Virus record (IMG/VR): IMGVR_UViG_3300035670_000025
Strand: one strand, 5' to 3'
Length of the DNA stretch: 64,000 nucleotides
Source: a virus
The stretch's first letter is position 1; the number at the start of each line of letters is the position of its first letter. The notes under the pieces are model-generated. The model did no database searches. It was not told the DNA's origin and saw nothing but the letters and a program-made list of their open reading frames with translations. Made by a program: the position numbers and the translations under genes. Shown here piece by piece: positions 13,551 through 21,122 of the stretch.

Positions 13551-13558
13551 TTCATCAG

Positions 13559-13634
13559 TACTACCACATAGTTTAGTGATCTAAAACACTAAGTTGTACT
13601 TAGGAGCGTGGGTTTAAATCCCACTGTGGTAGTA
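13559..13634 (+). ncRNA. tRNA-like element or pseudo-tRNA with a shortened anticodon arm and no CCA
   Basis: Acceptor TACCACA/TGTGGTA (extends to 10 bp), D stem GTTT/AAAC, CTAAG-TTGTA-CTTAG, T arm GTGGG-TTTAAAT-CCCAC. Confidence 0.75.
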
Positions 13635-13646
13635 TCAAAAAAGTGC

Positions 13647-18416: not shown

Positions 18417-18905
18417 ATGGAGAACATCATGAACACATTCTATATGCTAGTTGGATTGCCAGGAAGTGGAAAAACAACATGGTGCCAGAACTTCAAAACT
18501 GACCAACCCACCACAATCATATCTACAGACGATATCATTCAAATGATTGCCGATAAACATCGATTAACTTACAATCAGATGTTTGACGATTTATCATATT
18601 CATTTGCAGAAAAGGTATCACATAAGATTGCACGATATGCATTTGATAGAAATGATGATGTGATATGGGACCAAGTTAATTTGACTTTCAAATCACGTGC
18701 AAAGAAACTTAAACTAGTTCCATCACATTATAAAAAGATTGCTGTATATTTTGATAATCCAACTGACTTAAATGAGAGATTAAAGAATAGACCTGGAAAG
18801 ATAATTCCCGTAGAAGTTCTTTCTAGAATGATTGTGACTCGTGATTTTCCATTAAAAGAAGAAGGGTTTGATGAAATACAGTTTGCCCAAAATGAAAGGA
18901 ATTGA
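18417..18905 (+). CDS. P-loop kinase (AAA_33 / polynucleotide-kinase-like)
   Basis: VGLPGSGKTT, ISTDD, IWDQVNL, EEGFDEI. Confidence 0.85.
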   Translation: MENIMNTFYMLVGLPGSGKTTWCQNFKTDQPTTIISTDDIIQMIADKHRLTYNQMFDDLSYSFAEKVSHKIARYAFDRNDDVIWDQVNLTFKSRAKKLKLVPSHYKKIAVYFDNPTDLNERLKNRPGKIIPVEVLSRMIVTRDFPLKEEGFDEIQFAQNERN

Positions 18906-18906
18906 A

Positions 18907-19470
18907 ATGACTGAACTTGCATTGAGAGATTTTTGTGCTGTTATTGATGGGACTATGACTCCAGAATTATGTGAGCAATTAATTTCATTATTTGAAAACA
19001 ACCCGGAACTTCACCAACGTTTTGATTTAAACAAAACACCAAACTTCACACAACTAAATTTCACACAACATAGTTCTATTGATACTGCTTTACATAATAA
19101 GGTTGTTGATCATTTGATTGCTGCTGTTCAAGTTTACAGAAAGAATGTGCCAGAAACATTTTTTTGGAAACCTGGATTTTCTTTTGAACAAGTACGAATT
19201 AAGAAGTATTTGAATGATGGAAATGATTTGTTTGATACCCATGTTGATGCATCATCATCTGAAACAATGAAAAGGTTTTTTGCTTTCTTTTGGTATTTAA
19301 ACGATGTTGATGAAGGTGGGGAAACTGAATTTTTAAATTTAGATTTAAAGGTAAAACCAAAGGCAGGAAGATTAGTAATGTTTCCTCCGATGTGGATGTA
19401 TCCGCATAAGGGGCATCCACCGATTTCAAACAACAAATATTTGTTGAGCACCTATCTACATTTCTCTTGA
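18907..19470 (+). CDS. 2OG-Fe(II) oxygenase (prolyl-hydroxylase-like)
   Basis: HVD, YLNDVDEGGETEF, FPP.WMYPH.G, KY. Confidence 0.9.
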   Translation: MTELALRDFCAVIDGTMTPELCEQLISLFENNPELHQRFDLNKTPNFTQLNFTQHSSIDTALHNKVVDHLIAAVQVYRKNVPETFFWKPGFSFEQVRIKKYLNDGNDLFDTHVDASSSETMKRFFAFFWYLNDVDEGGETEFLNLDLKVKPKAGRLVMFPPMWMYPHKGHPPISNNKYLLSTYLHFS

Positions 19471-19497
19471 CAACAAGATAACGATGAGATATAAATA
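19467..19497 (+). promoter_or_regulatory. overlapping early and late promoter for the tmRNA
   Basis: TTGACA (19467)-N17-TATAAA, whose -10 lies within TATAAATA (19490-19497). Confidence 0.7.
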
Positions 19498-19499
19498 AC

Positions 19500-19830
19500 C
19501 CTACATCGTTGAGATTATTAACGATTGATTCGGACTGGAGGGCAGTACTCCACGTCTCCACCATAGATACACTATCGTCTAAGAAAGCAGTAGGACACAG
19601 GGACGGAGTGCGGAGATTCCTGGAATGTGAGTGCCAATCTCACTAGTGTATCTTTGATGGGGACGAAATAGTTTCGACGGGTCAAGAGAAGGTAATGGAG
19701 ATGTCCCGTGCAAACTGGGTTAACGTAAGAAAAAACTTAGGTGTCGCAAATGATAACGCACCATTTGAAACTCGCCTAGCAGCATAGTTTCATTGGGTTT
19801 GGTAGTTTTCCTCGAAACAGAAAAACTACC
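19500..19830 (+). ncRNA. ssrA: circularly permuted two-piece tmRNA, alphaproteobacterial type (ends approximate)
   Basis: T arm TGGAG-GGCAGTA-CTCCA, then CGTCTCC-A-CCA ending at 19563; coding piece starts GGGGACG at 19659 (G3-U70 Ala pair); helix TTGATTCG/CGGGTCAA; tag ANDNAPFETRLAA* at 19746-19787; 3' hairpin GGTAGTTTT/AAAACTACC. Confidence 0.95.
19565..19653 (+). ncRNA. tRNA-like cloverleaf inside the tmRNA intervening segment
   Basis: 10-bp stem AGATACACTA/TAGTGTATCT, D stem GTCT/GGAC, CAGGGA/TTCCTG with a 13-nt loop, T arm GTGAG-TGCCAAT-CTCAC. Confidence 0.7.
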
Positions 19831-19841
19831 ATTATTTTTTT

Positions 19842-21122
19842 ATGGAGATAGCAATGCAAATTGTAAAGGTTTTATCTACAGGTAAAGATTATATAACCGT
19901 TGAAATTTCTGATGGTTCAAAACTGAAAAGATCACAAGGAACGATTTCATGGAGATGTAATAATCCAGGCAATTTAAAATTTGGAACTTTTGCAAAACAA
20001 TATGGTGCTATTGGAAAAGATAATAAAGGACATGCTATATTTCCTACTTACGAACATGGAAATAAAGCAAAACACGATTTGTTATTTTCTCCAACAACAC
20101 GATATTATAACTTATCATTGATTAATGCTATTAAAATTTATGCTCCAGAATATGATAATAACAATCCAACAGCATATGCTAAATTTCTATCAGACAAAAC
20201 TGGCATAGACATAAATACAAAACTATCTTCATTAACTGAAGAACAAAGAATTTCACTTCTTTCATATATTCAAATTTATGAAGGATTTAAAGAAGGTATT
20301 GTTGAAAAAATGTCAACCAAAAATATGAATAATTCTTATATCCAACAATTTCTAAAAGATGAAGGCATCTTTAATGGAAATGTTGATGGTATCATCGGAC
20401 CACAATCTCTTTCTGCAATTAGAAGATATTTAATAAAACAAGGAATTGGTATTAAAAGATGGACCAGATACAGATTGCTTATTGGTATAGAACAAAGCAT
20501 TTATAAAAAAGAAGGATTTGATACTGGTCCTATTGACGGGTTTGTGGGAGAACAAACAAGATTTGCAAGAGAACAATGGGAAGCAAAGGGAAAAGATCCA
20601 AGCATTCTTCATAACGTCTCTCTTTGGAGAGATATTAATATTATCACTCCTAAAAATGATTGGCCAAGACAACAAGACTGTTTGAAATACTTTGGCAAAC
20701 CAGGAGAGAACCAAACCAAAATACAATTACCCTGGGATATGTACATTGCATGGGATAAGAAAAAAGTTATTAAATCATTTTCTTGTCATGAAAAAGTTCA
20801 CGATTCAATGTTACGTTGTTTAGAAAGAATTGGTGATGCTTATCCAGATGCCAGTGTTAGAAGAAAACTAGGTATTGACTTATGGGGTGGATGTCTTAAT
20901 GTACGGAAAATGCGTGGTGGTTCCTCATGGTCAATGCATTCATGGGGCATTGCCGTTGATTTTGATCCTGATAGAAACCAATTGAGATGGGGAAGAGATA
21001 AGGCAAGATTAGCAAAACCTGATTGTGAACTTTTTTGGAAAATATGGGAAGAAGAAGGTTGGATATCATTAGGAAGATCACGCAATTTTGACTGGATGCA
21101 TGTTCAGGCAGCAAGACTTTAG
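19842..21122 (+). CDS. multidomain endolysin: lysozyme-like N-terminus, peptidoglycan-binding segment, M15 peptidase
   Basis: RCNNPGNLK...YAPEYDNNNP; two DGxxG motifs (VDGIIG, IDGFVG); R.MRGG..WSMHSWGIAVD...DWMHVQ. Confidence 0.85.
   Translation: MEIAMQIVKVLSTGKDYITVEISDGSKLKRSQGTISWRCNNPGNLKFGTFAKQYGAIGKDNKGHAIFPTYEHGNKAKHDLLFSPTTRYYNLSLINAIKIYAPEYDNNNPTAYAKFLSDKTGIDINTKLSSLTEEQRISLLSYIQIYEGFKEGIVEKMSTKNMNNSYIQQFLKDEGIFNGNVDGIIGPQSLSAIRRYLIKQGIGIKRWTRYRLLIGIEQSIYKKEGFDTGPIDGFVGEQTRFAREQWEAKGKDPSILHNVSLWRDINIITPKNDWPRQQDCLKYFGKPGENQTKIQLPWDMYIAWDKKKVIKSFSCHEKVHDSMLRCLERIGDAYPDASVRRKLGIDLWGGCLNVRKMRGGSSWSMHSWGIAVDFDPDRNQLRWGRDKARLAKPDCELFWKIWEEEGWISLGRSRNFDWMHVQAARL

Follow-up and report, generated by a model that had tools for sequence, protein, structure and literature searches.

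What occupies the intervening segment of a permuted phage tmRNA gene, the spacer of a two-piece tmRNA that is usually treated as waste? The question was raised by a 64,000-nt stretch of viral DNA (IMG/VR record IMGVR_UViG_3300035670_000025; hereafter the window), which belongs to the low-G+C genome (about 0.33) of a T4-like phage. An original prediction, made from this sequence, placed a tRNA-shaped cloverleaf in the 95-nt spacer and suggested that the phage may release a third stable RNA from the same transcript, serving as a decoy for anticodon nucleases, a protein sponge or a processing scaffold. Our analysis indicates that the spacer holds a degenerate tRNA-shaped insert, probably tRNA-derived, whose stems appear to be under selection, and that in related phages the same slot carries more than 100 unrelated inserts behind a conserved closing helix.

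The tmRNA gene is circularly permuted, two-piece and of the alpha type, with the acceptor piece preceding the coding piece. Two Rfam models match it over their full length at 19503–19787 (RF04321: 92.1 bits, threshold 47; alpha-type RF01849: 73 bits, threshold 50), and both treat 19564–19658 as an insertion, in agreement with the predicted placement of the segment between the CCA at 19563 and the 5′ end at 19659. The 7-bp acceptor stem is formed by 19659–19665 and 19553–19559, with a G-U at the third pair, and the T stem of the acceptor piece shows a compensatory change relative to that of a second phage locus, L313. The tag frame (19746–19787) encodes ANDNAPFETRLAA followed by a stop, and the end of the tag is hydrophobic. 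BLASTn analysis of the tmRNA region against GenBank phages returned no match, and scanning metagenomes for the T-arm pattern of the window was equally without result.

The gene has its own promoter (Table 1), whose TATAAATA box (19490–19497) is also a T4-type late promoter motif. The TTGACA and TATAAATA boxes are kept in loci L313, L369, L370, L371 and L492, and 6 of the 17 bases between them match when the window is compared with L313; conserved boxes around a spacer saturated with changes fit a candidate combined early and T4-late promoter. A consensus promoter scan did not flag this promoter because its rule demands a T at position 6 of the −10 box. Likewise, a terminator-like hairpin downstream of the gene was passed over by a consensus terminator scan because its loop exceeds the length that the rule allows.

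Table 1. Coordinates of the tmRNA gene, its spacer and the tRNA gene of the window
Feature	Position	Strand	Description
tRNA-Thr(UGU)	13558–13637		Sole high-scoring tRNA of the window; Rfam 53.6 bits, own model R1 35.7 bits
tmRNA promoter	19467–19497	+	−35 TTGACA 19467–19472, 17-nt spacer, TATAAATA 19490–19497
Acceptor piece	19503–19563	+	T arm 19536–19552, acceptor 3′ strand 19553–19559, ACCA 19560–19563
Intervening segment (95 nt)	19564–19658	+	Between CCA (ends 19563) and G1 (19659)
Closing helix, 5′ strand	19565–19574	+	Begins 1 nt past CCA; minimum-energy fold
D-like arm	19577–19596	+	Stem 19577–19580/19593–19596, 4 bp; 12-nt loop; TC before, A after
Anticodon-position arm	19598–19622	+	Stem 19598–19603/19617–19622, 6 bp; 13-nt loop; then 4-nt linker
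T-like arm	19627–19643	+	Stem 19627–19631/19639–19643, 5 bp; 7-nt loop; abuts closing helix
Closing helix, 3′ strand	19644–19653	+	10 bp with 19565–19574
Leader TTGAT (5 nt)	19654–19658	+	Precedes G1 of coding piece; common to many spacer families
Coding piece	19659–19787	+	Acceptor 5′ strand 19659–19665; tag frame 19746–19787
Terminator-like hairpin and T run	19801–19842	+	Precursor fold and sequence

Each helix listed in the original prediction was reproduced in the minimum-energy fold of 19564–19658, including cloverleaf linkers of 2/1/4–5/0 nt and the stacking of the T stem (5 bp, 7-nt loop) on the acceptor-like helix. An identical cloverleaf domain was present in the fold of the whole 346-nt precursor, where it is stacked under the acceptor stem of the tmRNA across a small internal loop. 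The acceptor-like and T-like helices form a stack of 15 bp, compared with 12 bp in a tRNA. The folding energy of the spacer is unexceptional (z −1.41; 19 of 200 dinucleotide shuffles fold as well), and the interior taken without its closing helix is no more stable than shuffled sequence (z +0.86). The five GGA motifs reported within about 35 nt were counted again; two are in a loop and most are in stems.

How closely the element resembles a tRNA was assessed with several models. ARAGORN found no tRNA at the spacer, and the Rfam tRNA model RF00005 (gathering score 29) gave no match at E values up to 10 when the spacer was scanned alone, as was necessary because the tRNA and alpha_tmRNA models share a clan and overlapping matches are suppressed. 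The homologous spacer of L487 scored 31.0 bits with the same model, above threshold, in an alignment that adopts a register different from that of the original prediction; thus, the relaxed RF00005 scan that had been proposed as a check failed for the window copy and succeeded for its homologue. We also derived a covariance model of the standard cloverleaf (R1) from 90 aligned genuine phage tRNAs of the fetched loci and ran it with its filters off, as weak matches are lost at the default setting. R1 matched the window spacer at 19568–19654 with 15.7 bits (E value 0.028 for 91.5 kb, R1 E values being rough), over its full length and in the register of the original prediction, aligning 19577–19596 as the D arm and 19627–19643 as the T arm. 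The L487 spacer scored 15.3 bits. The next non-tRNA match in the window reached 8.7 bits, making the spacer the second-best tRNA-like site there.

The best such site, the tRNA-Thr(UGU) gene, is itself unusual in that pairing between its leader and trailer lengthens the acceptor helix to approximately 11 bp, CCA is not encoded, the D loop lacks GG and the anticodon arm is able to close to a 5-nt loop. It therefore has the same extended-helix, CCA-less design as the spacer cloverleaf.

Among 294 phage tRNAs of the fetched loci, the letters of the D-like linker-stem-linker occur in tRNA-Gln and tRNA-Glu alone, which bears out the predicted resemblance to the D arm of tRNA-Glu. The best local match of the L313 spacer is a phage tRNA-Gln(UUG); that of the window spacer is a phage tRNA-Leu with an identical T stem, followed by tRNA-Gln genes. 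The spacer element is not a decoding or working tRNA, since a 7-nt anticodon loop with U33, a GG in the D-like loop, a canonical T loop and a CCA end are all absent. The T-like loop keeps positions 54, 56 and 58 and has G at 55 and C at 57, and the acceptor-like helix has 10 bp and not 7 bp. Read from the sequence and the fold, the missing anticodon loop of normal size, the missing CCA and the degenerate T loop were as originally described.

Evidence of selection on the fold was sought in 337 permuted tmRNA loci with 227 unique spacers, extracted from viral, metagenome and assembly collections. Approximately half of these loci were retrieved by a pattern fixing one closing-helix sequence, so counts of that helix type are biased; the diversity of families among the loci found with T-arm patterns is free of this bias. 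The sole other spacer homologous to the window interior is that of L313, which lies on the same contig as L487 and is identical in L488. A search of 2.9 Mb of fetched loci with the interior (nhmmer and BLASTn) matched L313 alone, and two patterns, one combining the T-like loop with the closing strand and the other the D-like loop with the T-like loop, retrieved L313 or chance matches and nothing else. In GTDB genomes, the matches to the D-arm 20-mer were ribosomal protein L11 genes, and no free-standing copy of the cloverleaf module was found in viral contigs or GTDB genomes.

The L313 phage shares its gene order with the window (kinase, tmRNA, AdoMet decarboxylase, gp59 and gp32) but is distant from it, its neighbour proteins being 39–64 % identical to those of the window. 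The two spacers are 90 % identical and differ by eight substitutions and one 7-nt indel, the latter inside the anticodon-position loop (13 nt in the window, 6 nt in L313). All 25 base pairs are standard in both sequences. The 6-bp stem carries one double change (C-G to U-A) and one G-U to A-U replacement, and the 5-bp T-like stem carries one double change (G-C to A-U) below an unchanged loop; the remaining three substitutions fall in unpaired linkers, and the D-like arm is identical. The homologous segment thus keeps the D- and T-like arms with covariation, as the original prediction had asked of it, in this one homologue.

The shuffle control of the covariation tool (140/500) has no power with two sequences; hence, we simulated neutral change by placing eight random substitutions on the window sequence and counting as successes those trials in which all pairs stayed standard with at least two double changes. 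Success was rare (P = 0.0002, 0.02 % of trials; P = 0.0024, 0.24 %, if only transitions were allowed). With 25 pairs kept, two double changes and simulated probabilities of 0.0002–0.0024, the cloverleaf helices appear to be under selection, as judged from one comparison of two distinct sequences.

Across the related loci, the spacer behaves as a slot with a constant frame and a variable interior. The shortest spacer has 4 nt and the longest 293 nt, and the median over the first 171 unique spacers is 85 nt. A closing helix of at least 8 bp is present in 183 of the 211 unique spacers of at least 25 nt, most often with 10–11 bp, and it usually begins 1 nt past the CCA and ends 5 nt before G1. Because 73 different 8-mers occur at this helix, its pairing is maintained by covariation. 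Where the helix starts 1 nt past the CCA (72 families), it is preceded by U in 57 families (79 %). The tail before G1 is usually TTGAT; of 105 spacer families, 66 share this 5-nt tail and 28 have a 4-nt form of it. Between these borders, the interiors fall into 116 unrelated families, 89 of which are singletons. Double-change pairs were seen in the own folds of many of the larger interior families, interiors are on average slightly more stable than shuffles (mean z −0.45, 92 families) and four-way junctions occur in 29 of 128 spacer folds.

Comparison of close relatives shows that the slot is swapped as a unit between phages. Two contigs outside this set of loci encode neighbour proteins 98–100 % identical to those of the window; within the set, judged by neighbouring genes, L369 is the closest relative (kinase 85 % identical, promoter spacer nearly unchanged, acceptor piece one base different), yet its 89-nt spacer is unrelated to that of the window and homologous to that of the more distant L370. 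A third spacer type is present in L371 and a fourth in the L477 group. In L492 (950–975), a relative with a 79 %-identical 2OG-Fe(II) oxygenase, the tmRNA spacer has only 21 nt; the spacers of such minimal relatives have 21–28 nt, and that of L317 consists of the closing hairpin only. At the other extreme, the two long spacers L154:394–686 (293 nt) and L443:1087–1370 (284 nt) contain apparent, putative ORFs, that of L443 being cysteine-rich.

Among the spacer families, tRNA likeness is the exception. When 58 families were scanned exhaustively with R1, matches inside a spacer came from approximately three of them: the window type with 15.3 bits, L040 with 11.1 bits and, in its T arm, L369. At default settings, ARAGORN found no tRNA in any of the 227 unique spacers; at relaxed settings, it made eight calls compared with 1.8 in shuffled sets. 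T-arm-like hairpins are mildly enriched (15 spacers against a shuffle mean of 6.3), several of them coming from one family. The spacer family shared by the syntenic phages L369 (2764–2852) and L370 (4186–4276), unrelated to that of the window, has a canonical T arm in a class II-like cloverleaf with compensatory changes between its two copies, and is called as tRNA-Leu(tag) by ARAGORN at the relaxed threshold; the Rfam tRNA model gave no match to the L370 copy.

The arrangement has a published counterpart. The original prediction knew of no description of it; however, an intact tRNA-Ala gene has been reported in the intervening sequence of a permuted tmRNA and called a unique feature by its authors; that two-piece tmRNA is cut from one transcript by tRNA-processing enzymes is established (PMC11915505). 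As in the window, a tRNA-type cloverleaf lies there in the gap that separates the acceptor-piece CCA from the start of the coding piece. The tRNA-Ala is high-scoring and intact, whereas the window element has degenerate D and T loops, lacks an anticodon loop and CCA and is closed by a 10-bp helix. What is new here is, therefore, a degenerate tRNA-shaped insert whose stems appear to be selected. The OM43 phage Melnitz and the pelagimyophages resemble the window in that their low-G+C, T4-like genomes carry a permuted ssrA of the alpha type under a promoter of its own; the report on Melnitz deals with a glutamine riboswitch and the host-transition signal and leaves aside how the intervening segment is structured and how it varies (PMC9004378).

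Taking these observations together, we tentatively favour, at a little under an even chance, the reading that the spacer is a degenerate, tRNA-derived passenger module in an exchangeable slot, with a role in cis in tmRNA processing. The module would most likely descend from a phage tRNA of the Gln/Glu type. In approximately 100 of the 337 loci, tRNA genes, tRNA-Gln among them, lie directly downstream of the tmRNA on the same strand, so a donor is close at hand. The decoding parts would have been lost and the tRNA-like four-way junction retained.

Acting in cis, the 10-bp closing helix may stack beneath the acceptor stem over the small internal loop and so hold both acceptor strands together, and the self-contained cloverleaf may keep the 95-nt loop compact so that the two strands meet, its fold not competing with the tmRNA domains. 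RNase P makes the 5′ end of tmRNA at G1 and would here cut at G19659. We infer that a second cut falls 1–4 nt past the CCA, where the closing helix begins or slightly within it, and would free the acceptor piece for trimming by exonucleases back to the CCA; RNase P might make this cut too, as the cloverleaf's tRNA shape and the U preceding the helix would permit. The shared extended-helix, CCA-less design of the tRNA-Thr suggests a common maturation route in the window phage. If the cloverleaf does guide RNase P to free the CCA end, this would explain the removal of structured spacers.

A eukaryotic parallel is the tRNA-like mascRNA of MALAT1, which guides RNase P in generating the 3′ end of the RNA upstream; mascRNA has been shown to be cleaved by RNase P and RNase Z and to acquire a CCA. 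There too, a non-decoding tRNA-shaped element directly follows the mature 3′ end of a functional RNA, so that cleavage by RNase P on the 5′ side of the element would produce that end. The position of the window spacer fits this scheme, its helix starting 1 nt past the CCA, and U precedes the helix in 79 % of the families with that start. In the window element, described here from its sequence and predicted fold, the stacked helices comprise 15 bp, not 12, which argues against a simple tRNA-like measurement by RNase P. The polycistronic tRNA clusters of T4-like phages offer a second comparison, as their stable RNAs are likewise co-transcribed and separated by tRNA-processing enzymes; here, however, the tRNA-like unit is degenerate and lies inside another stable-RNA gene.

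Several observations count against the favoured reading of a cis-acting passenger module. The covariation comes from a single comparison, there being two distinct sequences of this spacer type; the folding energy is unexceptional, and the window copy fails the Rfam tRNA model. In addition, relatives with spacers of 21–28 nt, or with unrelated ones, indicate that a cloverleaf is not needed for tmRNA maturation. Of the three functions originally proposed, the processing scaffold is nevertheless the most plausible, with the reservation that the tRNA shape is not required for tmRNA maturation, given those relatives and the approximately 3 of 58 families that are tRNA-like.

Alternatively, the excised cloverleaf may persist as a stable, trans-acting tRNA mimic, a decoy against tRNA-targeting defence, an enzyme sponge or a regulator, possibly once its acceptor stem has been trimmed to 7 bp and CCA has been added, and bind a host or phage factor that recognises tRNAs. 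We regard this as unlikely. Selection on the helices, the passage of the homologue over the Rfam threshold, a maturation route that could be shared with the tRNA-Thr and the presence in relatives of an RNA ligase 1 and a P-loop kinase upstream of the tmRNA, recalling tRNA repair, would all suit such a role, as would the lack of any substitution in the D-like loop, the T-like loop or the shared part of the third loop. This loop invariance is not significant taken alone, however (P about 0.07, from 25 loop columns among 88), the module did not turn up on its own in viral contigs or GTDB genomes, and close relatives do without the cloverleaf. Two specific forms of the idea were set aside. A decoy for anticodon nucleases is improbable for an element that lacks a 7-nt anticodon loop and whose loop at that position varies from 13 to 6 nt, leaving no anticodon-loop mimicry; and a CsrA/RsmA-type protein sponge fits poorly with a GGA count that falls from five to three, with two of the five motifs in a loop here and one of the three in the homologue. 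Should the cloverleaf persist after excision all the same, undescribed small RNAs would be arising from phage tmRNA genes.

About equally improbable, in our estimate, is a tRNA relic in neutral decay, whose similarity to L313 would reflect a recent transfer of the cassette and not function. The element has indeed lost the 7-nt anticodon loop, the D-loop GG, a proper T loop and the CCA, its interior is no more stable than shuffled sequence, and intact tRNAs in such spacers are known (PMC11915505). Cassette exchange is also evident from L369, where a near-identical acceptor piece and promoter spacer accompany an unrelated spacer, so the 90 % identity with L313 may stem from recent transfer and not from long-term constraint. 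Against neutral decay, two double changes and one wobble repair with no broken pair among eight substitutions would be improbable in the absence of selection.

A broader proposal, that the slot in two-piece tmRNA genes of phages serves to launch stable, trans-acting small RNAs, the window's mimic included, seems to us more doubtful still. It starts from the more than 100 unrelated interior families, which are exchanged as cassettes and in many cases maintained by compensatory change, and it would make them, for example, decoys or regulators in phage–host conflict.

Two further readings are very improbable: a ligand-sensing element such as the glutamine riboswitch, a glnA-type element tied to ssrA in a related phage group (PMC9004378), was set aside since no Rfam covariance model except those for tmRNA matches the spacer or its flanks at E values up to 10 and, elsewhere in the window, the tRNA at 13562 alone reaches its gathering score; and a chance fold of a meaningless spacer, with which the modest energy z score and the frequency of four-way junctions among spacer folds would agree, conflicts with the conservation accompanied by compensatory changes and with tRNA-model scores well above the window background.

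The T4-like assignment of the window draws on a gp59 loader and gp32 encoded at 22.4–24 kb, the latter approximately 63 % identical to cyanomyophage proteins. Immediately 3′ of the tmRNA (19842–21122) lies a gene for a 426-aa endolysin-like protein with an M15 peptidase and a peptidoglycan-binding domain, part of whose N-terminal region also matches an annotated phage endolysin. On the 5′ side, a kinase gene alone (18417–18905) adjoins the tmRNA in the window, while L370, L371, L476, L477 and L487 encode a T4-type RNA ligase 1 together with a P-loop kinase (AAA_33/KTI12-like) 1–2 kb 5′ of the tmRNA or its site, a pairing that recalls tRNA repair modules. The tmRNA is absent from the corresponding site in L476 and L489, and a kinase-based search of viral contigs led to distant phages, few of which have a tmRNA at this site. 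Finally, the tmRNA is often the first gene of a tRNA cluster: in approximately 100 of the 337 fetched loci, L153, L160 and L264 among them, tRNA genes (Arg-tct, Gln-ttg, Ile-tat and Met across these loci) lie within 250–600 nt 3′ of the permuted tmRNA.
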